From the IMG/VR virus record IMGVR_UViG_2671180405_000008: DNA of 36,457 nucleotides, one strand, 5' to 3'. This document shows, in pieces, positions 4,009 to 33,350 of the stretch. The notes below the pieces were generated by a model, which did not search any database, was not told where the DNA came from, and saw only the letters and a list, made by a program, of their open reading frames with translations. The stretch is from a virus. Taxonomy: Duplodnaviria; Heunggongvirae; Uroviricota; Caudoviricetes. The position numbers and the translations under genes are program-made. Numbering within the stretch: position 1 is the first letter of the stretch; the number at the start of each line of letters is the position of its first letter.

Positions 4009-4010
4009 GC

Positions 4011-5430: not shown

Positions 5431-5433
5431 GAT

Positions 5434-6994: not shown

Positions 6995-7068
6995 CGCTTT
7001 CCCCCCACGTCACATCCTGGAATACATGCGACCAGTCGCCTTCGGAAGAGGGCAGGCGGGGTTTTGGC

Positions 7069-8566
7069 TCAATCTTTATAAAGATGTAATCCTAACTCAT
7101 CAATATGTCCGATGCGCGAACCATTTGAATAGAAGCTAATAATACCATCTCCATCTTGCCTAAATCCGGTGTCGTTATCTCCCAGAACAATGGAGTTTTC
7201 ACCCAGTGCGTTATCAGTAGCTCCAATAGCTAGACCTCCTTTAATTTTGGCCCCGTGGCTGACAGATATAGCACCTGTTCTCAGATTTATAGCGAATGGC
7301 CTTAATGGGCCGATATTACCGTTTTCGCCTTGTCCTTCAGCCGTCGGAATGAAATGAAGAAAATCTTCTGAACGACGGAAAATTAGACCGAAGGTATCAT
7401 TGAAAATTCGCAGCGCATTCACCGTGCCAATTTTCAGTTCTCCGGTCATTTTATCGCCGGAACGCTGAACGGCGTTACCAGCCTTGTTTACCGTTTCCTG
7501 TAAACCGAGGTATTCGATAACGGCAGCAACGGTCGATTTCGCAAGAATATCCCGCCCGACTTTTGTCAGGGTTGCCAGGCTGGCGACATCATTCCCCGTA
7601 AAATACGGAAACCTGTCTGCCGCAGTAGTAAGTCCGGCCAGCGCCGTCAGGGTGGCATCTTTCGGTTGCTTACCCGCAAGCGCGTTAGTCATGGTGGTCG
7701 CAAAATTCGGGTCGTTGCCCAGCGCCGCAGCCAGCTCGTTCAGCGTGTTCAGTGCATCAGGTGACGAATCTACAAGGGCGGCAATCGCAGCCATAACGAA
7801 AGCCGTGCTTGCGATTTGGGTATTATTCGTTCCCTGTCGCGCAGTTGGTGTTGTTGGCGTTCCGGTCAGTGCAGGACTATTTAAGGGCGCTTTCTTGTTC
7901 GTTTCACCCATTACCGCCTTAACCGCTTTTGGCGTTGCCGCCAGTGACTCGGAAGTGCTGTTGGTCGCACTGCTGAGCTGTACTATCCCCTTTTTCGTCG
8001 TGCTCGCATCCTCAAGCGCCACGGCGGATGCAATATCCTCTGCCCGTTTTGCTGCTGTCTCGGCGCGCGTTGCCGCGGATTCAGCAGCAACTTTGCTCTG
8101 AGATGCAGCCGTCGCACTGCCTGCCGCCTCTGATGCTTTCGTTGTTGCTGTCGTGGCACTACCTTTCGCTGCTGACGCTTGTCTGGTCGCCTCATCTTTT
8201 GAAGCAGACGCAGATGATGCCGATGACGCCGCTGAACTGGCTGACGATGCGGCTGCTGCCTTAGAGGAAGCAGCATTGTCTGCTGAAGTCTTTGCATTTG
8301 TTTCAGAGGTTTTTGCTGCAGAAGCAGACCTCGCTGCTGCAGTGGCTTGCTCAGTGGCTTTGCCAGCCTTCGTTGTGGCTGTTGAAGCGGATGATGCGGC
8401 GCTTTCTGCCGATTTTCCGGCGGCGGTGGCACTGGCTGAGGCCTGCCCGGCACTTGTTGACGCGGCACTGGCAGATAATGCAGCCGCTGTTTTTGAACCT
8501 GCCGCAGCTGAGGCGCTCTGTCCCGCTGCTGTTTCAGAAGACTTAGCGTTCGTCTCGGACGTTTTA
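7069..8566 (-). pseudogene. Chimeric tail-fibre fragment: Ala/Ser/Thr-rich Stf-like repeats (8566-7980) fused to a diverged H-like constant region and a variable cassette identical to 2560-2982; N-terminus truncated by the IS, C-terminus truncated at the 7070/7072 junction
   Basis: ORF 7069-8598 translation; first 11 codons (MVVSAIASTPH) lie inside the IS terminal repeat; ends HLYKD exactly where homology to copy 1 stops. Confidence 0.6.
7494..7519. repeat. Third copy of the invertase crossover site, same orientation as 2983-3008
   Basis: Identical 26-mer ttcctgtaaaccgaggtattcgataa. Confidence 0.55.
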
Positions 8567-8609
8567 TGAGGTGTACTGGCAATAGCGGACACTACCATTT
8601 GTTCTTTTT

Positions 8610-9428
8610 TTAAGCAGCCATCTGATGATATTTTTCCCTGAAGGCTGCCGGGGAGATATTCCCCAGACGAGAGTGACGACGCTGACGATTGTAGAAAATC
8701 TCAATGTATTCCCGTATTACTGAGATGGCTTCATCCCGGTTATTAAAACGATAGTGGCTCAGGCTCTCATTTTTCAGCGTTCCCCAGAAGCTTTCCATCG
8801 GAGCGTTGTCGTAACAGTTACCTTTACGCGACATTGATGTTTTCAGACCAGACTGCTCCTGTATGACCCGGTAATCGTATGCGCAGTACTGTGAACCTCG
8901 ATCAGAGTGGTGGATTAGCCCGGCAGGTGGGCGCTGGCTCCTGAGCGCCATAAACAGGGCTTTACCTGTCAGCTCTTTTGTCATGCGCTCTCCCATGGCG
9001 TAGCCGACAATTTCGCACGTATAAACATCTTTGATGCCAGCGAGGTACAACCATCCCTCCTGTGTGGCAACATACGTCAGGTCCGCCACCCAGACCTGAT
9101 TTGGTGCTGTAGGAGCGAACGTCTGGTTCAGCAGATTTGGCGCAACTGGCAGATTGTGGTTCGAGTTCGTAGTCGCTCTGAACTTGCGTTTCTGCTTACA
9201 GCGTAGCCTTAGCTCCTTACGAAGACGTGCCAGTCGGTCACGACCAACGATGATGCCATTCTCTGCCAGCTCCGTCTGGAGCCGCCGGGTTCCATATGTT
9301 TCGCGAGTGCGGATATGTGCCACCTTAATCTCCAGTTTTAGCCGCTCATCACTTTGTTTTCTGTCTGAGGGTTCATGCTGTACCCAGTTGTAATAACCGC
9401 TCCTGGATACACCAAATACCTGACACAT
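8610..9428 (-). CDS. IS3-family transposase OrfB (DDE integrase domain)
   Basis: 272 aa; HSDRGSQY and NCYDNAPMESFWGTLK motifs typical of IS3-family OrfB. Confidence 0.85.
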   Translation of the reverse strand: MCQVFGVSRSGYYNWVQHEPSDRKQSDERLKLEIKVAHIRTRETYGTRRLQTELAENGIIVGRDRLARLRKELRLRCKQKRKFRATTNSNHNLPVAPNLLNQTFAPTAPNQVWVADLTYVATQEGWLYLAGIKDVYTCEIVGYAMGERMTKELTGKALFMALRSQRPPAGLIHHSDRGSQYCAYDYRVIQEQSGLKTSMSRKGNCYDNAPMESFWGTLKNESLSHYRFNNRDEAISVIREYIEIFYNRQRRHSRLGNISPAAFREKYHQMAA

Positions 9429-9463
9429 CGCTTCAATGGGAAATTGTTGTCGCCATTGTTCGA

Positions 9464-9766
9464 TTAACGCGTATTTTTCAGCGACTCCTGTGCAAAATAC
9501 GCTGTTGCTTTTTTTAATATATCTCGCTCAAGGCGAGCTTCATTTAACGCCTTACGCAGTTGCAGAATTTCAGATTCCAGTTCAGCCACCGTGCGGGAAC
9601 CAGGAGTACCGAGCCCTTTTCTGGCGGCGGTAACCCATTGTCCTAAAGTGCCTTCAGGAAGAGATAATCGGGAAGCGCCTTCACTGATCGAAAGTTGATT
9701 TTCAAGAACCGTTCTGACAGCTTCGGCTTTGAACTCTTTAGAGTAACGTTGGGTTTTTCTGCTCAT
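9464..9766 (-). CDS. IS3-family transposase OrfA (HTH, leucine-zipper part)
   Basis: 100 aa MSRKTQRYSKEFKAEAVRTV..., recalled as IS600 OrfA. Confidence 0.85.
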   Translation of the reverse strand: MSRKTQRYSKEFKAEAVRTVLENQLSISEGASRLSLPEGTLGQWVTAARKGLGTPGSRTVAELESEILQLRKALNEARLERDILKKATAYFAQESLKNTR

Positions 9767-9827
9767 TATTAGCTCCTTCTGATGCCATTCTATTTCAGGA
9801 AGGAGTGTCCGTTAAACTCAGGCTACC

Positions 9828-11537
9828 TCACTCTGACCAGTCAGCTTCAAAGCCATAACCATCACGCGCTGAACGATAAAAAATACCGCCGTTCCTGTAA
9901 TTCACGCGGAACTGTACAGCAGGGCAGCTCCCCGTATTCATATTGAAGTGGAGGATTAATGTCGATGCGCCACCAATGTTTGCGTTATAGACCCCGCTAT
10001 TCCAGTTCCAGCCAACAGCTTTATCATTTCCGACAGTGCTTCCTGTTTGCCCTAAAGCAAATGCAGGTTGTTGATTTTTCGTGTTGTAGTCTCGTCGCCA
10101 GCCAGGAGCGTAAGCATCACCATGATTAATATAAGTGAATTGAGCGTTAGTAATTCCGCCACCGCTGGACGTGCTCGGCGTGGTAACGCGTATGGTCATT
10201 GCGCCGCGAGTGCCAATAACTTCCACCACAGCACCTGCAAGACAAATATTTCCGCAACCTGTATCTGTAATGACCTTATTATTTGCATAAGCCCATGAGC
10301 CTTTGCACATCCAGTAAGGATGGTTAAATGCTCCCTGACTCTCCAGCCACGAAATAAATTGCGCGGTTGTCCAGACCTGACTATCGCCACCAATATTCAG
10401 CCATGAGCTATATGCGCGGCAGGCACCAATATTTTTGGTGAAGGTATCTTTCCCCGGAATATCTGCGCCGTTCTGGTTTTTCTGTAATGCGCCAGAAGCC
10501 TGATTTACCGTTTCCTGTAAACCGAGGTATTCGATAACGGCAGCAACGGTCGATTTCGCAAGAATATCCCGCCCGACTTTTGTCAGGGTTGCCAGGCTGG
10601 CGACATCATTCCCCGTAAAATACGGAAACCTGTCTGCCGCAGTAGCAAGCCCCGCCAGCGCCGTCAGAGTGGCATCTTTCGGTTGCTTACCCGCAAGCGC
10701 GTTAGTCATGGTGGTCGCAAAATTCGGGTCGTTGCCCAGCGCCGCCGCCAGCTCGTTCAGTGTGTTCAGTGCATCAGGCGAAGAGTCTACAAGTGCGGCA
10801 ATCGCAGCCATAACGAAAGCCGTGCTTGCGATTTGGGTATTATTCGTTCCCTGTCGCGCAGTTGGTGTTGTTGGCGTTCCGGTCAGTGCCGGGCTGTTTA
10901 ATGGGGCTTTCTTGTTCGTTTCATCCATTACTGCCTTAACGGCTTTTGGTGTCGCTGCCAGCGTTTCAGACGTGCTGTTGGTGGCGTTGCTGAGCTGGAC
11001 AAGGCCTTTTGCGGTCAGCGAGGCGTCCGGGTGACGTCGTGACTGTTCATGCTCTTTCAGTTTGTCATCCACGTAATTCACTGTGGCCATCACCATGGTG
11101 TTATCCACGGTAAGCGCCACAGTGGCAGTGCTGGATACGGTCAGAATGGTGCGAAATGTTTGTGCACGTCCGGATCCTTCGGCAACGGTTGGCTTGTAAC
11201 TTTCGGCAGTATTGCCTACCGCGATCAAATCGCCGTGCTCATCAAACACACCAATTTCCCGGATCCAGAATCCGCCCGTTTCAGGAGGAATAACCAGCTC
11301 CGCAATAATGTGGTTCTGATGTGTTGCGTCCAGGGTGACGCGATTAACGGTATGTCGCCACACCTCATGCACAAGACGGGTCTGCTTACTGTCTGGCGTG
11401 GGTAAAGTACCGCCGCCGTCACCCACGGCCATATGTGTCAGGCGGACAGGTTTCCCATCTGGCGCGGTTGCCTGCGCTAATTTTTTTGCACCCGTATCGG
11501 TGATAATGGTTTTAAATTTTCGTGTTGTGGTACTCAT
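9828..11537 (-). CDS. Tail fibre protein H, second copy, with a different variable C-terminal cassette that is cut by the IS insertion (stop codon formed at the IS boundary)
   Basis: 569 aa; identical to copy 1 up to LGLQETVN then diverges; C-terminal ...GGIFYRSARDGYGFEADWSE matches the silent cassette at 75-851 up to the IS joint. Confidence 0.75.
   Translation of the reverse strand: MSTTTRKFKTIITDTGAKKLAQATAPDGKPVRLTHMAVGDGGGTLPTPDSKQTRLVHEVWRHTVNRVTLDATHQNHIIAELVIPPETGGFWIREIGVFDEHGDLIAVGNTAESYKPTVAEGSGRAQTFRTILTVSSTATVALTVDNTMVMATVNYVDDKLKEHEQSRRHPDASLTAKGLVQLSNATNSTSETLAATPKAVKAVMDETNKKAPLNSPALTGTPTTPTARQGTNNTQIASTAFVMAAIAALVDSSPDALNTLNELAAALGNDPNFATTMTNALAGKQPKDATLTALAGLATAADRFPYFTGNDVASLATLTKVGRDILAKSTVAAVIEYLGLQETVNQASGALQKNQNGADIPGKDTFTKNIGACRAYSSWLNIGGDSQVWTTAQFISWLESQGAFNHPYWMCKGSWAYANNKVITDTGCGNICLAGAVVEVIGTRGAMTIRVTTPSTSSGGGITNAQFTYINHGDAYAPGWRRDYNTKNQQPAFALGQTGSTVGNDKAVGWNWNSGVYNANIGGASTLILHFNMNTGSCPAVQFRVNYRNGGIFYRSARDGYGFEADWSE
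10511..10536. repeat. Fourth copy of the invertase crossover site, same orientation as 2983-3008; coincides with the left edge of the second 4.1 kb repeat
   Basis: Identical 26-mer; homology between the two blocks starts here. Confidence 0.55.
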
Positions 11538-11539
11538 GC

Positions 11540-12103
11540 TTAATCGTCCGGATAAATGGTAATGACTTCACCGTCGTAAGTTGCTGCTGCCGCGAAAATA
11601 TCTCCCTGAATCTCCTGAATGATATTCAGCCCTGTCATGTGGCGGCTGACCGGGCGGGCATCAGCAATCAACCGCTCCATTTCCAGATACATTTCCTCCG
11701 TCACGCCACTGTCCAGCGTGCCAACATCAATCTTGAATGTTCCGGGTTCGCCGTTGAACTCCCACCACTCAGACACGCGAATGAGGTATCCCAGCGGCTC
11801 AATGGCCCGTCGCAGGGCGCTGATGGTTCCTTTGTGTCGGTGTATCAGCCATGCATCACGAATCACCTGTCGCTTTGTCTCTTCCGGCCAGTTGCGATCC
11901 CAGCGGTCAACGGAAAACGCCCAGGCGAGATAAGGCAGCAGATGCACCGGGCAGGTGTCCGGCGACCACAGCGTGTTGAGGTCTGCCGGAATGTCTGTAA
12001 TGCGTGTTCCGACGGCTTCGGCACAACGCATGAAATTGCTGGCTGATGGTGGTAACAGTGAATTACTCATTACGCCCACCTTCGCTGATGGTGAATGACT
12101 CAC
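11540..12103 (-). CDS. Baseplate assembly protein I, second copy
   Basis: Protein identical to 4011-4574. Confidence 0.8.
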   Translation of the reverse strand: MSHSPSAKVGVMSNSLLPPSASNFMRCAEAVGTRITDIPADLNTLWSPDTCPVHLLPYLAWAFSVDRWDRNWPEETKRQVIRDAWLIHRHKGTISALRRAIEPLGYLIRVSEWWEFNGEPGTFKIDVGTLDSGVTEEMYLEMERLIADARPVSRHMTGLNIIQEIQGDIFAAAATYDGEVITIYPDD

Positions 12104-12959
12104 AGCGCGCCGCCTGTATGTCGCTGATGGCCATATTCTGTGTGGGTTCGATTATCTCCACGCGTTGCACACCGTGCACATGCAGTGCGGCAGCAATGGC
12201 GGACAACGCCACGTCCTGACCGATAAGCCCCTGCTCAGCCAGCCACTTCCTGAACGACGATTCAGCCGCAGCCAGAATAGGTTCGGATTCCGGACCGGGG
12301 TAAAAGTACAGTTTTGCATTCAGCCGCCATGTCACGATTCTGGCACTCTGTACGGTCAGGCGGTCGGCCACCGGGCGGGTATCCTCTGCATTCAGAACGG
12401 CGCGAACGGTATTAAGCAACGCCTCCGTTGCTGTGCCGTCGCCCTCAGTGGACAGGATGGAAACCGTCACATTTGCCGGAGACGGACTGATGGCCCGCGC
12501 ATCGCGCACCAGACCGCTGGCGCTGCGGGCAAAATACTCGTATGCGCCTGACGGGCCTGCAACACTCAGGCCGTCATACGCCCGCTGCGCCCGCAGTCTC
12601 AGCGAGGTGTCGTTCTCCATCACCACGTCGGTGGTATCCGTTGCCGGAGTGATAACCAGGCGCTTTGTGTTCATATTGCCCGCGAGGTTGTCCAGGTCTG
12701 TTCCGGCGCTGTGGCTCAACATGCAGGCGCGTGCGGCCTCATTGACCCGCTGGCGTAACAGCATTTCACGAAACGACATGGTTTGAGCGATAACGTTCAG
12801 GGGTTCCGATTCCAGTTCCAGTGCGGCGGAGACGACTTCACGCTGTTCGGCGGGATAAGCTGCAATCATCATGGCCTTTGTGTCAGCCAGAATTGCCTCA
12901 AAGTCAGGCTCCGCGATGATGGCGGGTTCCGGTAACTGGGAAAGGTCAACGGCAGGCAT
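12063..12959 (-). CDS. Baseplate assembly protein J, second copy
   Basis: Protein identical to 4534-5430. Confidence 0.8.
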   Translation of the reverse strand: MPAVDLSQLPEPAIIAEPDFEAILADTKAMMIAAYPAEQREVVSAALELESEPLNVIAQTMSFREMLLRQRVNEAARACMLSHSAGTDLDNLAGNMNTKRLVITPATDTTDVVMENDTSLRLRAQRAYDGLSVAGPSGAYEYFARSASGLVRDARAISPSPANVTVSILSTEGDGTATEALLNTVRAVLNAEDTRPVADRLTVQSARIVTWRLNAKLYFYPGPESEPILAAAESSFRKWLAEQGLIGQDVALSAIAAALHVHGVQRVEIIEPTQNMAISDIQAARCESFTISEGGRNE

Positions 12960-12962
12960 GAT

Positions 12963-13313
12963 TTACTCCCTCAGCGTGATGGTTAATTCAACATTCTGCA
13001 TGGTCTGCATGACAGTGCCCGACAGCGTCACCCCGGCGTGGCCTCCTGCCTTCCAGACAACGTCGATGGCGTTCAGGGCAATGCGTGGTTCCCATCGTGT
13101 CAGTGCAATCACGGTAGCACTCATGCATTGCAGACGCGTGGTGTTATTCATGGGTTCGTCAATCAAATCAGGCACAAGGCTGCCATATTCCCGTCGCATA
13201 ACCCGGCTTGCCAGCGGGGTGGTCAGGATGTCCCTGACTGACTGTTTCAGGTGCGCCATATCGTTCAGGTTTCCCGTCCCGTCCGGGTTCATTCCTGTGT
13301 AGCGGGTTGTCAC
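12963..13313 (-). CDS. Baseplate wedge protein W, second copy
   Basis: Protein identical to 5434-5784. Confidence 0.75.
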   Translation of the reverse strand: MTTRYTGMNPDGTGNLNDMAHLKQSVRDILTTPLASRVMRREYGSLVPDLIDEPMNNTTRLQCMSATVIALTRWEPRIALNAIDVVWKAGGHAGVTLSGTVMQTMQNVELTITLRE

Positions 13314-13891
13314 TGCGGGCCTCCTGTCGAATCGCTGCCACCTTTAACGCCACCGTGCTTATGCGTATGCACTGTGATGCCGTTTGAGGTGAAATCGCCG
13401 CCGCTGTGCGTGATATTGCCGCTCATCGTTCCCCCTTTTGTGACGTCAAGCGTCGCTGTTCTCAGAAGGTCTGTGCATTCCACGACAGGCGTGTTCAGTG
13501 TCACGCTGATGGATGCCTGCAAAGTGGCCGTTTTCATGCCGCTTGCGCTCAGTGCGCCTGCGTCCGCGTCGTAGCGGAACACCGCGCCGTCCGGCGCGCT
13601 GACCACGATTTCTTTCAGGCTTTTGCCGGGTGCCGGAATGGCATCACTCCACAGGCTGCCGATTATCATGGCGGTTTCCGGGTTGCCGCCGATGCAGGCA
13701 ATTGCCACCTGTTCGCCTGGTGATGGCGGAAACCACACGTTGAAGTCTCCCGCGCGCGTGGTGTTCCAGCGCAGCCAGCCTGTTTCCAGTTCGCCGCTGC
13801 GAACGCGCACGCACCAGGATTCCTCATCAACTTCAGAGATGATCCCGGTGCGGATGATATTGCTCAGCAGTCGCATGAGTTCTGCGCTCAT
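13310..13891 (-). CDS. Baseplate spike protein V, second copy
   Basis: Protein identical to 5781-6362. Confidence 0.75.
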   Translation of the reverse strand: MSAELMRLLSNIIRTGIISEVDEESWCVRVRSGELETGWLRWNTTRAGDFNVWFPPSPGEQVAIACIGGNPETAMIIGSLWSDAIPAPGKSLKEIVVSAPDGAVFRYDADAGALSASGMKTATLQASISVTLNTPVVECTDLLRTATLDVTKGGTMSGNITHSGGDFTSNGITVHTHKHGGVKGGSDSTGGPQ

Positions 13892-14523
13892 CGTACAGCC
13901 TCCGCAATCCGGCCCAGCACCGTGTTATAAATCAGGCGCTCATCTGCCTGGCTGATACCCAGCAGCTCACGTACCGGGTAATCGGTGAAAATGCCCGGCG
14001 CAACCTGATCGCGCTCACCGAACTGATGAACGCGTGCAATACGTGCGGCCACGCCGCTGTAACCCACCGTCACACCGGAAGCATCTGCACGGGCTTTCAG
14101 GTAGCGGGCGGTGCGCAGTTTTACGAACATGGAGACGCGCCTGGTGCTGTCCTGGTTGATGCGCCGGGTGCGTATTTCCAGAAAACGGTCGATGTCATCC
14201 CGGTAAAACGTGCGGATATTGTTTTTATCCTCATCCCACCCGGTGATGGTTCGCCCGTATTTCCCCGTGTCGTGATGCCAGTTTTTCAGCGTGCGTGCTT
14301 CGTTATTCCAGATAAAGCGAATGCGCTCCTGTATCCGGGTTACGCGGCGTCTGCGTGGTGTCCATGCGGTCCCGTCCGGCGCTTTCTGTGACCGGATACG
14401 CGCCTGCTGGGCGCGGCGTAAATCCTGTGCCAGCTTTCTGGCGATGTTATTAATGGCCTGCTGATTCAGGCTGTCGCGGATAGCCTCAAAGGTTTCATCC
14501 ACGCGGGTGAATGCCTTATCCAT
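13888..14523 (-). CDS. Putative tail completion / virion morphogenesis protein (gpS-position), second copy
   Basis: Protein identical to 6359-6994. Confidence 0.5.
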   Translation of the reverse strand: MDKAFTRVDETFEAIRDSLNQQAINNIARKLAQDLRRAQQARIRSQKAPDGTAWTPRRRRVTRIQERIRFIWNNEARTLKNWHHDTGKYGRTITGWDEDKNNIRTFYRDDIDRFLEIRTRRINQDSTRRVSMFVKLRTARYLKARADASGVTVGYSGVAARIARVHQFGERDQVAPGIFTDYPVRELLGISQADERLIYNTVLGRIAEAVR

Positions 14524-14983
14524 CGCTTTCCCCCCACGTCACATCCTGGAATACATGCGACCAGTCGCCTTCGGAAGAGGGCAGGCGGGGTTTTGGCTCC
14601 GGCAGGTGTTCTGCCTGCGGTGTGCCCTGACTGCTGCGCGTGATGCGAACGCGTTCCCGCAGGGGGAGCGTAAACAGGAGATCGGCGCTGTCATCGTCAT
14701 TGATAACGGCGGAAAATTTGATGTCCTGATTACGCTCCGGATTGAGCAACAACTGTGGCTGATTTTCGGATAACCACGCCAGCAGCGGCAGCGTGAGGTC
14801 GTCCAGCTCTCCGGCGTAATCCATGACAAACATCACTATCTGATAGCGGTAAACAAACGATGGGGTTTCTCCGGTCGTTTCAATGTTGCCGCTCTCCACG
14901 AAAATGGTGAATTTTTCCGGGTTGGCATGACACCACCGGCATGAACGGGTCATGGCTTCACGCAGGGAATCAGTTTTCAGCAT
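14516..14983 (-). CDS. Tail completion protein R (P2 gpR-like)
   Basis: 155 aa MLKTDSLREAMT...; position between lysis genes and S; only its last ~80 bp are present in the first repeat copy (6987-7070). Confidence 0.65.
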   Translation of the reverse strand: MLKTDSLREAMTRSCRWCHANPEKFTIFVESGNIETTGETPSFVYRYQIVMFVMDYAGELDDLTLPLLAWLSENQPQLLLNPERNQDIKFSAVINDDDSADLLFTLPLRERVRITRSSQGTPQAEHLPEPKPRLPSSEGDWSHVFQDVTWGESDG

Positions 14984-23340: not shown

Positions 23341-23526
23341 CTACCACTCGATCGGCACGTAGTCATTAAGTTCCGGAGACCAATTGCACTTTTCACATCT
23401 GTGTTTTCCATTCTGGCAGATACATAAACGATAACGGCCACAATGCGGGCACCCATTTTCACCATTATCATAATCACCGAGCGACCATTCCTGCATAAGC
23501 AGCTCTTCTTCATCATCATTTAGCAT
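23341..23526 (-). CDS. Small zinc-ribbon protein (CxxC...CxxC), unknown function
   Basis: 61 aa with CPHCGRYRLCICQNGKHRCEKC; last gene of the parM-led cluster. Confidence 0.4.
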   Translation of the reverse strand: MLNDDEEELLMQEWSLGDYDNGENGCPHCGRYRLCICQNGKHRCEKCNWSPELNDYVPIEW

Positions 23527-23540
23527 TAATCCCCCTTGAG

Positions 23541-23780
23541 CTATTTACTCTTCTCGGCCCTCAAAATCATACGAGAACCATCATCCAGCTCCCAATTAAT
23601 TTCACCGCCTTCTGCCATGACTAGATGCCAAACGAGTTGAGCGGCCTCGTTGGTTACATCGCGACCGCGATCATTTCCTACGCGGCGTTTTGTTCCGTCT
23701 CCTAAGTCACGCATTTTTGCCAATACGATGGTTTTTGATAGCGGTGAAAAACCAAGCTGTAGTCGTGCTGAATTACTCAC
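23541..23780 (-). CDS. Hypothetical protein
   Basis: 79 aa ORF overlapping the upstream gene by 4 bp. Confidence 0.35.
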   Translation of the reverse strand: MSNSARLQLGFSPLSKTIVLAKMRDLGDGTKRRVGNDRGRDVTNEAAQLVWHLVMAEGGEINWELDDGSRMILRAEKSK

Positions 23781-24301
23781 TGGCTGCCCCCTTTGTACTG
23801 TGTTAACTCTTCCTGCTCCTGCATCATGCGATTGACCTGAACGCGTGTGCGTCGAACGGCAAAATTAAATTGAAACATGAGCCGGAACATTTCTGATGCT
23901 TCCGTGTGAGCATCACGGATAGGTGACAGGCGGTACAGTTCTGCCTCCGTAGCTTGTTGAATCAATGACAGATCAAATTGAAGTGCGGGTCTGGTACATT
24001 TTGCACATCTGGCAGCAAGCTCCGGTATTAGTCTCTTAACGAAGGTGTTTTGCACCGCTTTGTTGATTTGTGTCTGCATCCAAATCGCAAATTTCAGCGA
24101 ACGCATAAGTTTGATAGCCTCGGGCAGCGGCAGATAGATCATGCTGGTAGATTTGGGTGGTTGGTGAACCATCTTCACGGATACGCGATTTCGCAGCGTT
24201 CGGAAAATCGTGTTCCCAACAACAGCTTCTACGGATACAGGACAGGGAGCCAGACCAGCCCGCAGTGCTTCTTTCATTAGCATGTATTCGTATTTTTTCA
24301 T
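23777..24301 (-). CDS. Hypothetical protein
   Basis: 174 aa ORF, same strand, tightly packed. Confidence 0.4.
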   Translation of the reverse strand: MKKYEYMLMKEALRAGLAPCPVSVEAVVGNTIFRTLRNRVSVKMVHQPPKSTSMIYLPLPEAIKLMRSLKFAIWMQTQINKAVQNTFVKRLIPELAARCAKCTRPALQFDLSLIQQATEAELYRLSPIRDAHTEASEMFRLMFQFNFAVRRTRVQVNRMMQEQEELTQYKGGSQ

Positions 24302-24361
24302 CGTGTTTTCCTCGTGCGGGGCGACAGTGCACCCCGATAAAATTAAAAGCCGTCAAATTCG

Positions 24362-24673
24362 TCATTCAGGAAATAATGCCCGGATATTCCCTGCTATCTG
24401 ACTGGTTATCTGTGCGGTTGGTACTGGCTGTGGCACGGGGCGTTCTGTCCTGGTTTGTGTCACCGATAACGCCTCATCGTCAGCCCATGCAGCCAGTCGG
24501 TAAGCCTCTGCTGGATTCATTTTCAGAAGTGCCAGCCCGGCCAGAAAAGCCACGCGTTGGCCGCTTTTGCGGGCTTCTGGTGTAAGGCTGCCCAGCCAGG
24601 CGCATGCTTCGCTTTCGTTCTTGACGGCCGCAGGCTTCAGATAGAAACTTATCCGTCTGGTTGGTGTCGTCAT
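24362..24673 (-). CDS. ParR-like centromere-binding adaptor (start at internal MTTPTRR methionine)
   Basis: RRISFYLKP...RVAFLAGLALL...IRALFPE resembles plasmid R1 ParR (RRTIAFKLNP...RAALTAGLALY...LRSLFPK) from memory; directly downstream of the parM-like gene. Confidence 0.5.
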   Translation of the reverse strand: MTTPTRRISFYLKPAAVKNESEACAWLGSLTPEARKSGQRVAFLAGLALLKMNPAEAYRLAAWADDEALSVTQTRTERPVPQPVPTAQITSQIAGNIRALFPE

Positions 24674-24677
24674 TGGT

Positions 24678-25637
24678 TTACTCCTTGTCCATTGCGTACA
24701 GCCCATTAACCAGAGCAAACTGTGGCACCCCGTCCGCGATGAAAGTCGCATTAACTCCGCAGGCTTCGCGGATAGCGGGTGCCACAATCTCCGCCCCTCC
24801 ACCGACAACCATCACCCGCCCGTAACCCGAAAAACCCGCCAGCGCGCGGATCACGCGTTGTTTCAGTGTTTCTTCCTTTTCACGAATAACCGCCATCAGG
24901 CTGGCGTAATGCGCGTCATTGTGGATGTGCTGGCGCAGCCAGGCTTCATCATGGCGATGTTCGATAATGGTATTGGCGATGTGGTGACTGGTGCGCATAC
25001 CGTTAGTGGCCATCACCGACAGTACGGCATCGGCCATCAGAGAAACGCCTACGTGTGGATCGCAAAACACCTGGCTGATACCTGCCAGTTGCCCCTGAAC
25101 CTTTGCCACATCCAGCGTGGTTCCGCCCAAATCCACAATCAGCAGGGATTCAAACGGACTCATGTCAGCCAGTGCCTTAAAGCCAGCCGGAATGGATTCA
25201 GGCATAACCCGCACGTTACGGATAGTGAATGCTTCGCCGTTCTGGTACTCCACCGGGCGCATAACGTTCGCTTTTTTGCGGTTGATGTTGGCCATGTCCG
25301 GCTGTGCGTTTGTGTCGAAATACTCGCTCAGTGGCAGGGTGACAACCACATCCACCTCCTGTGGCGTGATGCCTGATTTGACCAGCGCGTGATGAATGGC
25401 AATGACATTTACATCGCTGTACTGGTATTGCGTGTCGGTTGTCTGGACAAAGCGATCGCTGACCGGATCAAAACCATAGCGCACGCCATCAAGCATGTAG
25501 TTCGCGGGCTGCATGCCACCGAACGGCGCAGACCATTCCGACTTGAAGCTGTTCGGGCTGATGGCGTTGCGGCGTTCGCCGTTCTCAGTCCATGCCAGCT
25601 TGATGTTGGTGGAGCCGTCGTCGATACAAATTTTCAT
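24678..25637 (-). CDS. ParM/StbA-like actin-family segregation ATPase
   Basis: N-terminus MKICIDDGSTNIKLAW, phosphate-2 motif VDLGGTTLDV, adenosine motif VVGGGAEIV; close to R1 ParM. Confidence 0.8.
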   Translation of the reverse strand: MKICIDDGSTNIKLAWTENGERRNAISPNSFKSEWSAPFGGMQPANYMLDGVRYGFDPVSDRFVQTTDTQYQYSDVNVIAIHHALVKSGITPQEVDVVVTLPLSEYFDTNAQPDMANINRKKANVMRPVEYQNGEAFTIRNVRVMPESIPAGFKALADMSPFESLLIVDLGGTTLDVAKVQGQLAGISQVFCDPHVGVSLMADAVLSVMATNGMRTSHHIANTIIEHRHDEAWLRQHIHNDAHYASLMAVIREKEETLKQRVIRALAGFSGYGRVMVVGGGAEIVAPAIREACGVNATFIADGVPQFALVNGLYAMDKE

Positions 25638-25666
25638 GTCGCTTTTCCTTATGTTGATTAATTAAT

Positions 25667-25768
25667 CGTTTACGGGATTCTGAAATCCCGTTTTTGCCTG
25701 TTTTGTGCGCGCTTCATATATCGCTGCGCGTTTTTTGCTCATTTACGGGATTCGTGAGTCCCGTTTCT
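25667..25768. promoter_or_regulatory. Candidate parC-like centromere/promoter: two 20-bp palindromes 73 bp apart upstream of the parM-like gene
   Basis: acgggattctgaaatcccgt (25672-25691) and acgggattcgtgagtcccgt (25745-25764), both preceded by tttacgggattc; second copy lies in the last codons of gene A. Confidence 0.3.
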
Positions 25769-28536
25769 GTCTGTTTTTTGTTTCCACTGGTCAGGCCACC
25801 CCGCAGCAGGTCTGCTTTGCGGCGGGCGCGTTCAGTGGTTTCACTGATTCTCTGTGCGTGCTCTGCGTCGCGGATGGCGCGCAGCATGTCAGAAAGCACG
25901 GTAACGGGTGTTTTCATGGTGTTCTGGTCCTGCTGAAGTGTGGATGCCAGGCGTGCGGCGGCTTCAGGGTCTGATGCCCCCAGCTGTGTCAGATAGCTGG
26001 CGACCGGGTTATGGCGGATCTCCGTGCTGCTTACGCCATGATTACGGCTCAGGCGCTGCCAGAGCTGCGTGATTCGGCTGTCCGGGCGGGTATCCGGTTT
26101 GCGTACAATTTCAAATCCCTGCGGTGCAATGATGCTGCCGTCAACGTACAGACTGCCGCCCCGTAACAGGTGCTGCATCTGTTGTTCACCGATATGCAGG
26201 CCGAGAGATTCAGCAGACTCCCGCCATTCTTTAGCGAGTAATTCGTGGTTATCAGGCAAAGGCCGCTGCTGTTTGCGGCTCTGTGTCCAGCTCTGCATTT
26301 CATCACTGCTGTTTTTTGCCTGTTTGTCACGAAGCGAACGCATCAGCGCCCGGCGTTCGTGCCGTTTCAGTGAGCGCATCCATTCATCCACATCAACGCC
26401 GTCAGGGAGCTGCGGCCACGGTGCTGGCCGTTCTTCCGGCTGTTCTGTCCCGTTGTTGTCCGTTTCCTGTACACGGGGACAGTTATTGCCACGAGTCCAA
26501 GGGGCGGCAGGGCCGCCCTGAAGGTCAAAACCATTTTCGCGGGCGCTGTCTTCCGCTTCCGGTTTGCGTCTTACCAGCTTCCAGTTATCCGGATGCGTGC
26601 ACACACGGGAGGATTCCCCGATGAGTGGTGACCAGATCCCGTAAATCTGTACGCTCTGTTCGCCGTAATCGTTCAGCTCATCGGCGAGGTCGTAGGCGGT
26701 GCGAATCAGGTAGTCTTTGCGTGGAACAAGTACGCCGCCCTGTTTCTCTATGTAGGTGGCAAAACATCCGGCATCAGCGGCGGCAAGAACCGCATCCATT
26801 GCGTCATCCTTCAGCCGTTGCGGGCCTTCCGGGTTGCGTGCCATCTGGCTGGCAAGGCGGCGCAGTTCACGCCATACCTGGCGGGAGGGGATGCCAAAGA
26901 ACTGGAACTGGCGGACCCGGTGAAGGCGCGCCCAGCCGATGGCGCGTTCCACGCTCTCGGCCATTGATTTTCCGGTTTCGTGGTCAACGCGTGGCTTGCC
27001 CGTTTTCGGGTCGATGCCATCCACGGCGCGGCTGTCCAGGTTTTTCCCGATGTAGGTGGCGATGTAGCTGGTTGGCGTGCCTTTTGAGCCGTCTACATAC
27101 TCCGCCTTAAAGCGCGGAGTTATGTCATCGCCCAGCTCGTGACGATCTTCCTGAATGGCAATATCGCGGGTGTGGGACACAATGGTGTCGATTTCTTCCG
27201 GATGAGCAAAGACCATCATATGCCAGTGCACGGTGCCGTCATGGTGAGGCTCCGCCGTGCGGATGCCATACCAGCGCAGGCCGTCGCGGTTCAGTTTTTT
27301 GCGGACCGTCGCAAAAAACGTGTTAACCAGGTAATCGCTGGAGTCGCGCATTGTGGCCCCGTTCCATTTGGGATTCGGATGACCGTTCTCCGTTGTGGCG
27401 TGGTATTTTGACGGGCAGGTGACAGTCAGAAACACCGCTTTGTCGCCACGGGCTTCGGCCAGAAGTTCCAGCCCCTTCATGGTGGCCATCATTTCTGCCT
27501 TACGGTGAACCGGGTTACTTACTCCCGCGTAATACACCGTCTCGAGATCAATCGTGAACCCGTCTTCATTTTCCAGCATGAAACTTTTCAGGAAATCGCG
27601 TGTTTTCTCGCGCTGTGCGCGAAACTCGCTTAACGCGTCCTGGCTCAGATAGGGCGATGTTTTTCTGGAAACCAGACAGGCGGCGCGAAGTTGTTCTTCT
27701 CTCCACTCGCAACGTAACAGCCACAGTTTGCGTTTCCACCATTCCGCACAGGTCAGGCGAAGGATTGCGCCCGGCAGCAGTTCTGTGTCCGGTTCGTGCC
27801 TCCGGTCTTTGTCTGTTGTCAGTGCGTCATAATGCGGAGGCATGGCGTGTAAGTGTAACGCCATGCGGGCCAGCATCTGATACGCCTTCAGCGTTACATC
27901 CATGGTCAGCTCGCCATCAGTCGCGCCAAAACCATCGCAGAGTTTTTCGAAGGTGCTGCTGAACATCGCCGCCGTCATGGTGGCCAGCGTCTGTATCTGG
28001 TGTTTGTTGAGTTGCGGCAGGTAAAGCAAATCGTCCAGGCGTTCACGTCCGGCAAGGGAGCGATAACCCGGTGTCAGCCAGTGTCCGTCAGTGCGATCCA
28101 GACGTTCGAATATTTTGCGCAGGGTTCCGCGTGCATAGCGTTCCGCCTGCCAGCTCTTTTTGCCTTTCCGGCGATCGGCTTCCTGTTTTTTGCGCAGGAA
28201 GGAGAGGTGGCGAATAAGCGGATCGCGCAGATAGGACGGCAGCAGGCGCAGCGAGGCCATGGCTTCATCCACCGCGCCGCGTGCCTGTTTTCTGGCGTCT
28301 CCTGCCAGTGTGATGGTTTTGTCCTGTTTTTCCTGTGCGTCCAGGCTTTTATTAATCAGGTTGCCCAGTGGCGTGGCGGAGAACGCCGCATCAGCCATTT
28401 CCTGGCGGCGCTCGTTCTCTGCCCGGTGGGCATCCAGCCAGGAGGAAAGCGCGGATTCAGGAGCGGGGATCCCCGTTCCTTCACGCCCCACTGCGTGGCG
28501 CGGTTGTTGCCAGTCCCTGATGTACTCTGCCGTCAT
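25714..28536 (-). CDS. Replication initiation endonuclease A (P2 gpA family, rolling-circle)
   Basis: 940 aa; position at the end of the early operon; histidine cluster TVHWHMMVF consistent with an HUH-type nickase. Confidence 0.8.
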   Translation of the reverse strand: MTAEYIRDWQQPRHAVGREGTGIPAPESALSSWLDAHRAENERRQEMADAAFSATPLGNLINKSLDAQEKQDKTITLAGDARKQARGAVDEAMASLRLLPSYLRDPLIRHLSFLRKKQEADRRKGKKSWQAERYARGTLRKIFERLDRTDGHWLTPGYRSLAGRERLDDLLYLPQLNKHQIQTLATMTAAMFSSTFEKLCDGFGATDGELTMDVTLKAYQMLARMALHLHAMPPHYDALTTDKDRRHEPDTELLPGAILRLTCAEWWKRKLWLLRCEWREEQLRAACLVSRKTSPYLSQDALSEFRAQREKTRDFLKSFMLENEDGFTIDLETVYYAGVSNPVHRKAEMMATMKGLELLAEARGDKAVFLTVTCPSKYHATTENGHPNPKWNGATMRDSSDYLVNTFFATVRKKLNRDGLRWYGIRTAEPHHDGTVHWHMMVFAHPEEIDTIVSHTRDIAIQEDRHELGDDITPRFKAEYVDGSKGTPTSYIATYIGKNLDSRAVDGIDPKTGKPRVDHETGKSMAESVERAIGWARLHRVRQFQFFGIPSRQVWRELRRLASQMARNPEGPQRLKDDAMDAVLAAADAGCFATYIEKQGGVLVPRKDYLIRTAYDLADELNDYGEQSVQIYGIWSPLIGESSRVCTHPDNWKLVRRKPEAEDSARENGFDLQGGPAAPWTRGNNCPRVQETDNNGTEQPEERPAPWPQLPDGVDVDEWMRSLKRHERRALMRSLRDKQAKNSSDEMQSWTQSRKQQRPLPDNHELLAKEWRESAESLGLHIGEQQMQHLLRGGSLYVDGSIIAPQGFEIVRKPDTRPDSRITQLWQRLSRNHGVSSTEIRHNPVASYLTQLGASDPEAAARLASTLQQDQNTMKTPVTVLSDMLRAIRDAEHAQRISETTERARRKADLLRGGLTSGNKKQTETGLTNPVNEQKTRSDI

Positions 28537-30970: not shown

Positions 30971-31282
30971 ATGTCAATAGAGATATCAAAGAAGCTAAAA
31001 GCAATTCGAGAATCTGAGGGGCTTAGTCAGGCAAAGTTCGCGGATTCAATAGGTATTGCGGTTGGTACGGTTAAGCAATACGAGACTGGTATTCGAGGTG
31101 TGGGAACGGAGGTTTTACTGAAAATCACAATGCACCCGGAATTTAAAAAATACACTACGTGGTTGATGAGTAACGAAACAAATGAGGCTGCTGGGCAGAT
31201 CAGTCCTTCTCTCTCCCCTGATGGGCCAGAAAACACATCGTCTTCTCAAAAATCCCGCAAGACTGGCACACAGCCCGGCTAA
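30971..31282 (+). CDS. Immunity repressor C (P2 C-like); ORF track start at 30869 is probably too far upstream
   Basis: MSIEISKKLKAIRESEGLSQAKFADSIG...MHPEFKKYTTWLMSNETNEAAGQISPSLS resembles P2 C from memory. Confidence 0.75.
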   Translation: MSIEISKKLKAIRESEGLSQAKFADSIGIAVGTVKQYETGIRGVGTEVLLKITMHPEFKKYTTWLMSNETNEAAGQISPSLSPDGPENTSSSQKSRKTGTQPG

Positions 31283-31331
31283 TCATGGAACGCTGGGGGC
31301 ATGGTGGTCTTGTAACGCTGGGGCTTCACGA

Positions 31332-32309
31332 ATGAGCATAAAATCAATTCCGGGAGGGTATCTTCTTGACATGCGTCCTGAGGGGCGTAAAGGCAAACGC
31401 ATTCGCAAAAAATTTAAAACGAAATCGGATGCAGTTTTATATGAGCGGTGGGTGCTGGCGCAACAGCATAACAATGAGTGGAAAGGAAACTCCATTGATC
31501 GCCGTCCGCTGTCAGTGCTTATTGACTTGTGGTGGAAATACCACGGCCAGCTAATGAAGTCAGGGCATAACACGCGCCTTAAATTGCTGCGCTTGAGTGA
31601 GGCAATGGATGACCCGTGCGTGCATAAACTTAATACAACGATGCTCACCGAGCTACGTGTGTCCAGGATAGAGCAGGGGATACAGCCCAGCACCATAAAT
31701 CGAGAGATTGGGGCGTTAAGCGCGATGTTTACCGCACTCATCTCATCCGGCCATTTTCTTAACGATAACCCCGTTCAAGGCCTTAAAGGAATGAAGGTTA
31801 ACGAGCGTGAAATGGGATATCTGAGTAAGTCTGAATGTGTTCAGTTGCTGGATGCACTGGCTGAAAATCCCGATGAACGGCTGGCCGTCGAAATCCTTCT
31901 GTCGACCGGGGCGCGATGGGGCGAGGTAGCGGCACTGGAGCAGCGCCGTGTTCTTCATTGTCGAATCACTTTTTCAAAAACGAAGAACAGCAAAAACCGT
32001 ACCGTTCCTATTTCTGAAAGCCTGTTTGAAAAGATCAAAAAACGGGGCGGGAAACTGGTGTTTCCGACGCTGGATTATTCATTGGTTCGCGATGTCATCA
32101 AAACGGTCGCACCTGATGTTCCTGACGGCCAGGCTGTTCATGCGCTGCGCCACACCTTCGCCAGTCATTTCATGATGAACGGCGGCAATATTCTGACGCT
32201 CCAGAAAATTCTGGGGCACGCAAAGATTCAGACAACGATGATTTATGCCCATCTTGCGCCGGATTACTTGCAGGATGCGGTGAGGTTTAATCCCTTGGGA
32301 GGAATGTAA
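31332..32309 (+). CDS. int: Tyrosine integrase (P2 Int-like); start at MSIKSIPGGY
   Basis: LSTGARWGEVAAL, HALRHTFASHFMMNGGNILTLQKILGH and MIYAHLAPDYLQDAV blocks match P2 Int closely. Confidence 0.9.
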   Translation: MSIKSIPGGYLLDMRPEGRKGKRIRKKFKTKSDAVLYERWVLAQQHNNEWKGNSIDRRPLSVLIDLWWKYHGQLMKSGHNTRLKLLRLSEAMDDPCVHKLNTTMLTELRVSRIEQGIQPSTINREIGALSAMFTALISSGHFLNDNPVQGLKGMKVNEREMGYLSKSECVQLLDALAENPDERLAVEILLSTGARWGEVAALEQRRVLHCRITFSKTKNSKNRTVPISESLFEKIKKRGGKLVFPTLDYSLVRDVIKTVAPDVPDGQAVHALRHTFASHFMMNGGNILTLQKILGHAKIQTTMIYAHLAPDYLQDAVRFNPLGGM

Positions 32310-32311
32310 CT

Positions 32312-32812
32312 ATGGAAATAAAAAAACCTACAAAAAAAGAGTTATATGACTATTTACTATCGAAATATATAGAAGATAAATGCAAAGAAGAAGCTGATGA
32401 AATCAATAAGAAGTCGATGAGTCGTGTCAAAAAACATAAAGAGCGGCTGATGGAGATTACGCCAGAAATCTTCTTCCGTTTCTTGTCTGAGAAGGGGGTC
32501 TCCAGTGTCTGCCCTTCATGTGGATCGTCGCGATTATCTGTTCCAGAAAGTATGGATCTTTGCTGGGATAAAAATAAGAAACCAGAAAATTTTAACAATC
32601 TACCCCTGGAGGAACAGAGTGAGTTAATTAAAGAGAACATAAAGCATTATGTATCTTATGCTTTTTTGGGTGATGTTAAGAGCATACCTGATATGCGCAA
32701 AACTTATTACACGCTGCATTGCCTGAATTGTGGTTACCTGAGCCTTTATCGTACGTCTGCGGTGCTGAAGTGGTTGGAGAAAGACAAAGCGCAGGATGGT
32801 GATAATGGGTAA
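32312..32812 (+). CDS. Cargo gene 1: zinc-ribbon-containing protein of unknown function
   Basis: 166 aa; CPSCG and CLNCG motifs; strongly AT-rich; GGAGGA Shine-Dalgarno 8 bp upstream; start 3 bp after the int stop. Confidence 0.5.
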   Translation: MEIKKPTKKELYDYLLSKYIEDKCKEEADEINKKSMSRVKKHKERLMEITPEIFFRFLSEKGVSSVCPSCGSSRLSVPESMDLCWDKNKKPENFNNLPLEEQSELIKENIKHYVSYAFLGDVKSIPDMRKTYYTLHCLNCGYLSLYRTSAVLKWLEKDKAQDGDNG

Positions 32813-33350
32813 TGTAGCAAGAAATCTTTTCGGTAATTCAGCAGGTAGTGTGTCGCATTCTGAGCGTGATGTGCTTTATCATGGTGGCGATGGCGGCAGT
32901 AGTGGAGGCGGAATGTCAGATAAACTTGAAAGGCGAATTGAGCGGCTCGAAGGTGATTTATCGCTAACAAGAAACGACCTTGCGACGCTTGCTGAACGCA
33001 CTACAAACCTCTCAACTAAAGCCGATGTTGGTGAGGTGAAAGGTGAACTCAAAGCAGACATAGCACATCTGAAAGGTGATCTTGAATGCGATATTGCGAA
33101 TCTGAAAGGTGAGCTTAAATCTGATACAGCTAACCTGAAAGAGCAGCTCAAATCAGACATTAACAGCCTGAAGGGTGAGCTTACCGAAGCGATGGATAAA
33201 CGCTTTGACAAGATTATGGATGAGATGAATCGGCGGTTTGACAAGGTTGATGATAATACGAAGTGGCGTTGGAGTGGCATTATTGTGCCAGTGTGCACAA
33301 CCATTTTCACAGCGGCGGTTGCTGTATTTGTTGCTAAATTTGTTGGCTGA
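32796..33350 (+). CDS. Cargo gene 2: coiled-coil protein with Gly-rich linker, tandem 11-residue repeats and a C-terminal transmembrane anchor
   Basis: 184 aa; repeats LKGDLECDIAN / LKGELKSDTAN / LKEQLKSDINS; C-terminal WSGIIVPVCTTIFTAAVAVFVAKFVG; overlaps gene 1 by 17 bp. Confidence 0.5.
   Translation: MVIMGNVARNLFGNSAGSVSHSERDVLYHGGDGGSSGGGMSDKLERRIERLEGDLSLTRNDLATLAERTTNLSTKADVGEVKGELKADIAHLKGDLECDIANLKGELKSDTANLKEQLKSDINSLKGELTEAMDKRFDKIMDEMNRRFDKVDDNTKWRWSGIIVPVCTTIFTAAVAVFVAKFVG

Follow-up and report, generated by a model that had tools for sequence, protein, structure and literature searches.

The 36,457-nucleotide stretch of DNA analyzed here (IMG/VR record IMGVR_UViG_2671180405_000008; hereafter the window) is a P88-like prophage (Xuanwuvirus, Peduoviridae; a relative of phage P2) that is integrated beside btuC. 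Directly downstream of its replication gene A lie genes for a ParM-type actin ATPase and a ParR-type adaptor, and two similar palindromes are located just upstream of this gene pair. On balance, we lean toward the view that these components make up a functional type II (ParMRC-type) segrosome, which would act on the extrachromosomal phage circles that arise from gene-A rolling-circle replication. Comparisons among related sequences establish the identity of the two proteins, their conserved synteny, the purifying selection that acts on them, and the conservation of the paired cis elements.

From these features we infer a mechanism that resembles plasmid partition. ParR dimers would bind both GGGATT-N4-AATCCC palindromes, which are separated by seven helical turns just 5′ of parM, and the conserved C-terminal tip of ParR would capture ATP-ParM filaments, such that the growing filaments would drive phage DNA copies apart. 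The substrate is expected to be the circular phage genome as it exists after infection or induction, not the integrated prophage. Likewise, parM and parR would be expressed as distal members of the early (replication) operon, and thus would be off in the lysogen and on together with replication. The phage would presumably benefit through the spatial dispersal of its circles and through their efficient replication or inheritance ahead of packaging or integration.

The ParM and ParR proteins and their relatives

The parM gene (24678 to 25637, minus strand) encodes a 319-amino acid actin-fold partition ATPase, whose ATG start codon at 25637 is preceded by AAGGA. The protein matches the Pfam StbA_N (2.7e-82) and ParM C-terminal (1.3e-68) families as well as phrog_691, annotated as “partition protein” (3.4e-90). 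It aligns with R1 ParM (PDB 1mwk) over residues 2 to 316 with an E value of 8.5e-93 and ~50% identity over the full length. The nucleotide-binding motifs IDDGSTNIK, MPESIPAG (which includes the catalytic Glu), DLGGTTLD, and GGGAE are all intact, and residues D6 to T10, E147, D169 to D176, and G279 to A282 are invariant among the phage ParMs. As is typical of a type II system, the protein is therefore a ParM/StbA-family ATPase with intact phosphate-1, phosphate-2, and adenosine motifs. These results bear out the initial annotation, which had recognized such an ATPase after gene A, and the profile searches, which it named as a possible refutation, place the protein in StbA/ParM, a segregation family. 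Comparisons with relatives yield ratios of nonsynonymous to synonymous substitution rates (dN/dS) of 0.03 to 0.14, and by this measure parM is under strong purifying selection.

The parR gene (24362 to 24673, minus strand), when read from an internal ATG located 4 nucleotides (nt) past the parM stop codon, encodes a 103-amino acid adaptor and is preceded by a GGAG sequence that overlaps the end of parM. Its product matches Plasmid_stab_B in Pfam (2e-23) and phrog_2515, also annotated as “partition protein” (2.3e-56), which agrees with the ParR-like adaptor noticed earlier beside parM. By sequence family membership, then, the locus carries the small adaptor directly 3′ of parM that characterizes type II systems. 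Its N-terminal part is a DNA-binding domain of the ParR/StbB family, which a hypervariable linker connects to a conserved tip at the C-terminus with the sequence NIRALFPE. A search of the PDB with the single ParR sequence returned no match, and a profile built from 21 ParR alleles returned pB171 ParR (2jd3) as its top match, with an E value of 0.002. An AlphaFold2 model of the ParR monomer (mean predicted local distance difference test score of 62) contains helices and no strand. Its Foldseek matches are meaningless, and it does not confirm a ribbon-helix-helix fold, whose strand arises in the dimer only. The same low-confidence model predicts a helix at residues 86 to 100.

The ParR alleles are 40 to 93% identical to one another, and their differences are distributed unevenly along the protein. 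Among the 21 alleles, residues 1 to 65 and the C-terminal NI(R/Q)xxFP(E) sequence are conserved, and variation is confined to the linker at residues 66 to 92. In alignments with R1 ParR and other plasmid ParRs, the C-terminal tip, including its invariant Asn, matches the C-termini of these proteins. In R1, the C-terminal part of ParR contacts ParM. A working adaptor should exhibit the pattern that these alignments reveal, in which the DNA-binding end and the presumed motor-binding end are conserved and the linker between them is free to vary. Values of dN/dS for parR range from 0.07 to 0.44. The predicted DNA-reading strand, TRR(I/V)SFYL, is common to the ParRs of E. coli, Hafnia, and Plesiomonas, and the corresponding sequence in Serratia and Enterobacter ParRs is NRKISFYL.

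The history of the module appears to be one of long residence in phages. The closest ParMs of plasmids are at most 52% identical to the phage protein, and the plasmid collection is empty between 52% and 95% identity. A protein search yielded intermediate ParMs, at 54 to 63% identity, in Plesiomonas, Hafnia (two lineages), Serratia, and Enterobacter. Every intermediate ParM that was inspected lies between gene A and the portal/terminase genes of a P2-like phage and adjoins a Plasmid_stab_B gene. The first match in a true plasmid context, with Rep3 and ParA, is a Pantoea protein at 52% identity. In a neighbor-joining tree of 108 full-length ParMs, an analysis that had been suggested with the initial annotation, the phage proteins fall into two clades apart from the plasmid ParMs. 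One clade comprises E. coli, Hafnia, and Plesiomonas and the other Serratia and Enterobacter, each with 100% bootstrap support, and the two clades join in 61% of bootstrap replicates.

The divergent lineages were obtained by protein search followed by contig look-ups. A scan of genome contigs with the single ParM recovered solely relatives that are at least 98% identical, one of which is labeled Vagococcus, and a scan of viral contigs with a ParM alignment recovered 80 loci, all 99 to 100% identical. On this comparative evidence, P88-like (Xuanwuvirus) phages and the P2-like temperate phages related to them carry parMRC as part of their core genome. The contig labeled Vagococcus (NZ_JBQPOM010000071.1; 226 kb, Vagococcus sp. 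WN89Y, a Gram-positive organism) carries a ParM that is 98% identical to the E. coli phage ParM, which is likely due to assembly contamination or mislabeling.

A candidate centromere upstream of parM

Two 20-bp palindromes spaced 73 bp apart from start to start are present upstream of parM, as had been reported, and both are candidate ParR sites. The proximal palindrome (25672 to 25691) has the sequence ACGGGATT-ctga-AATCCCGT, is perfect, includes a GGG-N10-CCC core, and is located at −52 relative to the parM ATG. The distal palindrome (25745 to 25764), with the sequence ACGGGATT-cgtg-AGTCCCGT, forms seven of eight arm pairs and is located at −125, within the final codons at the 3′ end of gene A. 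The two share the core GGGATT-N4-AATCCC, in which the central four bases are variable. Each palindrome is also part of a 42-nt direct repeat that further includes a tract rich in A and C on the coding strand. Copy 1 of this repeat, which serves as the reference, spans positions 25666 to 25707 and holds the proximal palindrome. Copy 2 (25739 to 25780) holds the distal palindrome and is 81% identical to copy 1, again at a spacing of 73. The pattern CGGGA-N9-CCCG occurs in the window solely at the two palindromes, with 0.25 occurrences expected.

The arrangement of these elements is maintained among related phages. Every lineage of the clade formed by E. coli, Hafnia, and Plesiomonas has exactly two GGG-N10-CCC elements in the 200 nt 5′ of parM. 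Relative to the parM ATG, the distal and proximal elements are located at −125 and −52 in two E. coli lineages, at −124 and −51 in a Hafnia lineage from a metagenome, at −128 and −55 in a second Hafnia lineage (L016), and at −131 and −59 in Plesiomonas. The spacing is always 72 to 73 bp, or approximately seven helical turns, and the flanks of the pair are not conserved across these lineages. By an arithmetic estimate, ~0.05 occurrences of each element would be expected by chance per 200 nt. In Hafnia L016, the gene located 5′ of parM is an open reading frame (ORF) of 167 amino acids instead of A, and the pair is nevertheless retained. Therefore, the palindromic sites travel with parM. The recurrence of this pair at corresponding offsets from parM supports its assignment as a candidate parC-like centromere, as had been proposed for the palindromes.

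Other relatives also carry repeats 5′ of parM. In the Serratia/Enterobacter clade these are different sequences, 19- to 20-nt inverted repeats located 26 nt apart. Among plasmid relatives, the spacing is 94 bp at an R1-like locus (L011), where the repeats are rich in A and C, and 72 to 73 bp in an IncL/M plasmid.

A further short element, ATTAATCAA, is located at 25657 to 25667, between the proximal palindrome and the parM Shine–Dalgarno sequence. It is kept in E. coli, Plesiomonas, and Hafnia L016, and in E. coli it is part of a 12-bp palindrome, GATTAATTAATC. Another locus (L106) has ATTAATAAA at the equivalent position, and the motif is not present in Serratia or Enterobacter. The motif may serve as a weak −10 element or as a further binding site.

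Genomic context and alternative explanations

Gene A (25714 to 28536, minus strand) encodes a 940-amino acid rolling-circle replication endonuclease of the P2 type (Phage_GPA, 6.6e-131) that is 30% identical to P2 gpA. The parM gene follows 76 bp past gene A on the same strand. The sequence surrounding the ori nick site annotated in the P2 record aligns with the window near position ~26498, and by this homology the origin nick region is predicted at 26480 to 26515 (minus strand) within gene A. The candidate centromere, measured at its distal palindrome, would thus be ~0.75 kb from the predicted origin.

In the P2 record, the early operon runs on one strand in the order Pe, cox, B, A, and orf91, and the tin and old genes are located on the opposite strand near cos, with their own promoter. 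The parM and parR genes occupy the position of orf91 on the strand of A. A consensus scan of positions 24200 to 26100 revealed no sigma-70 consensus promoter on either strand and no sense-strand terminator-like hits in the gap between A and parM. Because the two genes are on the same strand as A and no recognizable promoter or terminator intervenes, they can be viewed as distal members of the early operon. The initial annotation had instead suggested a possible autoregulated promoter at the palindromes, a feature found within the parC of type II systems. We could not substantiate this proposal, given that no sigma-70 consensus is present at or between the palindromes and that weak nonconsensus −10-like hexamers picked by eye are the only candidates. 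An autoregulated promoter is no more likely than cotranscription of parM and parR with gene A.

The DNA immediately 3′ of parR is variable. In the window, this slot (23341 to 24301, minus strand) encodes a 174-amino acid protein of no family, a DUF7446 protein, and a 61-amino acid zinc-ribbon-like protein. In relatives, the slot holds HicAB, a KAP NTPase, or a DUF3800 protein. A PADLOC search for defense families produced no match for the par module or for the small ORFs after parR, and these three small ORFs may be uncharacterized accessory or defense genes. The par module itself lacks the hallmarks of lysogenic-conversion genes such as tin and old, in that it has a fixed position in all relatives, is co-oriented with A, and has no PADLOC match. 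Since its position is fixed and the varying genes appear only after parR, parM and parR are not the equivalent of tin and old, and the earlier placement of the module in the tin/old position does not hold. Rather, the two genes extend the replication operon in a conserved manner, and it is after parR that the hotspot equivalent to tin and old begins.

The prophage is an integrating element, as had been recognized. Its integrase (31182 to 32309) has Int_N and Phage_integrase domains and is followed by two small ORFs, then by btuC, btuE, btuD, and an NlpC/P60 gene. The btuC portion of this flank is matched in all 5426 complete E. coli genomes, and therefore the prophage is integrated. The par region is 95 to 98% identical to that of Escherichia phage P88 and other Xuanwuvirus phages, in whose records ParM and a partition protein are already annotated. 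The module is found in 1308 of the 5426 complete E. coli genomes (24%), in as many as three copies per genome, and its copies number 1454 on chromosomes and two on plasmids (1456 in total). The same ParM is encoded in only 14 of 384 phage records with a gpA-type gene, all of them P88-like. The carrier is thus integrase-bearing and resides in the chromosome, as expected for the partition system of an integrating element, and is not the low-copy autonomous plasmid that such a system would classically stabilize. Nor does it conform to a phage-plasmid, which would have a plasmid Rep protein, lack an integrase, and persist as an episome. An integrase is present, no Rep is annotated, and a single episomal record occurs among the matches.

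Several features weigh against the segrosome that we favor. The ParR of the E. coli phages lacks a segment of ~30 amino acids that is found in other ParRs (103 versus 116 to 147 amino acids). There are just two palindromes, compared with the iterons of R1 parC, which number ten. Given two palindromes and a short ParR, a filament-capping ParR scaffold may or may not form. The arms of the palindromes show no clear deficit of variation relative to their flanks in a set of 56 distinct upstream sequences from E. coli, and a common O157-type variant converts CCCG to CCTG in the proximal palindrome. The timing of parM and parR expression is deduced from gene order and from the negative consensus scan, and a weak nonconsensus promoter may be present, as TATATG occurs between the palindromes and ATTAAT is conserved 3′ of the proximal palindrome. 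No P2-like phage, bound as it is to lyse its host or to integrate, is known to gain from partition, and we found no transcript, proteome, or imaging data on parM and parR in the literature.

These features can be weighed together with other possible roles for the module. We consider it rather unlikely that P88-like phages, besides integrating, are maintained over many generations as circular episomes of low copy number that ParMRC stabilizes. The same doubt applies to the more general proposal that parMRC and gpA-driven replication together run a heritable extrachromosomal phase in these phages, be it a carrier or plasmid-like state or an organized replication compartment. The module has the sequence of a plasmid stability system, and SrpMRC, the corresponding system of the integrative and conjugative element (ICE) R391, lowers the loss of its excised, replicating form (PMC4489591). 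Furthermore, one circular record of 34,461 bp deposited as a plasmid (NZ_CP148288.1) contains an entire P88-like genome, in which int, cox, and a repressor gene are present. However, in complete E. coli genomes all but two of the 1456 copies lie on chromosomes, and the remaining plasmid matches are either fragments or large records with an integrated prophage inside. Another P2-like circle that has been deposited as a plasmid, pENTAS02, has no par genes. Therefore, circular plasmid records can be captured replicative circles, and the 34.5-kb record is weak evidence for an episome. The complete P88 genome has no gene annotated as a plasmid replication initiator, whereas paPv10 of Arsenophonus, a true P2-like plasmid, has RepA and a ParA-like ATPase that replace int. 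Of the roles suggested in the initial annotation, a plasmid-like state is consequently the least supported. If a heritable extrachromosomal phase were nonetheless real, a small integrating phage of the P2 type would possess a second mode of inheritance, served by a minimal two-palindrome centromere that partly overlaps a replication gene.

It is improbable that the genes form an accessory module expressed in the lysogen, wherein ParR and ParM would act in trans to destabilize incoming plasmids or phages with related centromeres, or would act on the chromosome through the integrated parC. The location between gene A and cos, which in P2 is the region of lysogenic-conversion genes, is consistent with such a role, as are the multiple copies (up to three) in some genomes and the many ParR alleles. 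Yet the position of the module is fixed and conserved across genera while the real variable cargo follows parR, its orientation is that of A without a convergent promoter of its own like that of tin and old, and there are zero PADLOC matches. Moreover, ParR variation is limited to the linker and spares the DNA-binding and presumed ParM-binding ends, so that no diversification of specificity is visible, and the nearest plasmid ParMs share no more than 52% identity with the phage protein. We give still less credence to the idea that the palindromes are terminators, RNA hairpins, or sites for another regulator, and that the par genes are a decaying relic of plasmid-phage recombination. Both palindromes do score as terminator-like hairpins with T-rich tails on the plus strand, antisense to parM, and the E. 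coli RNA hairpins are stable (−10.7 and −8.7 kcal/mol). The corresponding hairpins of Plesiomonas and Hafnia L016 have energies of −4.9 to −3.3 kcal/mol, the T-rich tails of the E. coli palindromes are not conserved in Plesiomonas or Hafnia, and no U-run follows the hairpins on the sense strand. What is conserved is the GGG-N10-CCC sequence, its 72- to 73-bp spacing, and its offset from parM, also in the lineage in which a gene other than A precedes parM. Therefore, protein recognition of duplex DNA is the better reading of these sites. A decaying relic is ruled out by the dN/dS values of 0.03 to 0.14, the intact motifs, and the deep phage-specific clades.

Several additional observations concern the prophage and its relatives. 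A 4.1-kb block of tail-fiber and baseplate genes (H′, I, J, W, and V) is present twice in the window in direct orientation (2968 to 7070 and 10497 to 14599), and the copies are 99.93% identical. The DNA between them (7072 to 10496) includes a third, partial tail-fiber copy (7072 to 7980) that is 96.7% identical to positions 2560 to 3468, as well as an insertion sequence (IS) element of the IS3 family with ORFs at 9464 to 9766 and 8610 to 9428 that have HTH_Tnp_1 and rve domains. Possible origins of this arrangement are a tandem duplication associated with the IS element, recombination between two prophages, and an artifact of assembly. The two ORFs between the integrase gene and btuC (32312 to 33350) encode proteins of 166 amino acids, with no family, and 184 amino acids, which is coiled-coil or DUF1640-like with weak matches to the LmuB and ZorA coiled coils. 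This stretch is present in just 23 of the 5426 E. coli genomes, and those listed include O26, O103, and O145 Shiga toxin–producing strains. Its ORFs possibly represent cargo that the prophage carries at its int-side end.

In E. coli O157:H7 Rafaela_II, the module is located in a degraded prophage that has a frameshifted tape-measure gene and an IS3 fragment beside parR. The parM and parR genes are annotated as intact in that strain despite the degradation. A P88-like prophage with sopE is also found on a record labeled as a Salmonella plasmid (NZ_CP110658.1; pS2122_1, IncHI2A, 272 kb), where it adjoins IS26 and the core chromosomal genes pheA, tyrA, aroF, rplS, trmD, and ffh. Either this plasmid captured a chromosomal segment or the record is a misassembly.

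Precedents and known partition systems

RefSeq, PHROGs, and several phage records already list the genes as ParM and partition protein, and for the concept itself there are two experimentally studied precedents among integrating elements, SrpMRC (PMC4489591) and AlpACS (PMC4446434). Given this annotation, these precedents, and the presence of the module in 24% of E. coli genomes, describing a partition system in such a prophage as unexpected, as was done initially, was an overstatement. We found no functional study in the literature on ParM with P2-like prophages, Xuanwuvirus, P88, CP-933T, or prophage ParMRC. The phiSM paper merely lists the gene as a “fitness” factor, and the supplementary tables of a study of ciprofloxacin-treated enterohemorrhagic E. 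coli hold no data on parM and parR. On present sequence evidence, the distinctive anatomy of the phage locus is the combination of a two-palindrome site that partly overlaps gene A with a shortened ParR.

The module is present in O157:H7, O104:H4, O26, and ST131 strains, where it has long been labeled “partition protein”. If it works as we propose, then the positioning of phage DNA by a cytoskeleton, a trait of jumbo phages and one actinobacterial prophage, would also be found in ordinary small temperate phages that infect enterobacteria. The system is tractable, in that ParM is ~50% identical to the best-studied bacterial actin and the candidate centromere spans ~120 bp. In addition, P88 is inducible and can be manipulated genetically (PMC5285337). 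A practical corollary is that a contig should not be taken for a plasmid because one of its genes is annotated “Plasmid segregation protein ParM”.

The closest known systems are the ParMRC (StbA/StbB) loci of R1/NR1 and their relatives on enterobacterial plasmids, which have the same protein families in the same order of site, parM, and parR. The phage ParM is ~47 to 53% identical to R1/NR1-type ParMs over the full length, with all ATPase motifs intact, and the phage ParR shares its N-terminal domain and C-terminal tip with R1-type ParRs. Repeated elements 5′ of parM are a further likeness, and those of the IncL/M relative are likewise spaced 72 to 73 bp apart. Unlike R1, the phage module belongs to phage-specific clades and is carried by an integrating phage that lacks a plasmid replicon. 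Its site has two palindromes (GGGATT-N4-AATCCC) where R1 has two clusters of direct iterons, extends at its distal element into the coding sequence of gene A, and has no consensus promoter between its elements.

Two other elements combine phage genomes with partition genes. Phage D6, a P1-like plasmid prophage, is the sole other phage in the collection with a ParM homolog (48% identity). The Arsenophonus nasoniae plasmid paPv10 (NZ_CP123514.1; 33.8 kb) is a complete P2-like genome that is kept as a circular plasmid with a partition ATPase. In this element, a RepA initiator and a ParA-like AAA ATPase occupy the place of int, unlike in the int-bearing P88-like phages. Thus, paPv10 is a different route of P2-like phages to a plasmid lifestyle.

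SrpMRC of the SXT/R391 ICEs is the actin-type partition system of an integrated, integrase-bearing element, wherein the adaptor binds srpC and the excised form, which undergoes relaxase-driven rolling-circle replication, is stabilized by SrpMRC (PMC4489591). In both cases the excised circle is replicated by a nicking enzyme through the rolling-circle mode, with TraI acting at oriT in the ICE and gpA at ori in the phage, and partition would serve a transient plasmid-like form, in the phage by analogy. The ICE is conjugative and is not a virus, and SrpM and SrpR are only distantly related to R1 ParM and ParR (PMC4489591), whereas the phage proteins are close to those of R1. The stabilizing function is experimental for Srp but is read from the genes for the phage module.

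AlpACS of the Corynebacterium glutamicum prophage CGP3 comprises actin-like AlpC filaments and a cotranscribed adaptor, AlpA (PMC4446434, PMC5539076). AlpA binds sites located 5′ of the operon, the alp genes are induced early, circular phage DNA is linked to the filaments, and both AlpC and AlpA are required for efficient CGP3 phage DNA replication (PMC4446434, PMC5539076). AlpC is described as an actin-like protein that resembles ParM in principle and not as its close homolog (PMC4446434, PMC5539076). CGP3 differs from the P88-like phages in having a Gram-positive host, in being an unrelated phage, in placing the adaptor gene first, and in that its filament function has been demonstrated, whereas that of the phage module is deduced. 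The likeness is that of an integrated prophage with an actin-like filament former and its adaptor. If the module works as proposed, P88-like phages would be a third class of integrating element, after the ICE and CGP3, to keep a centromere for a transient extrachromosomal phase.

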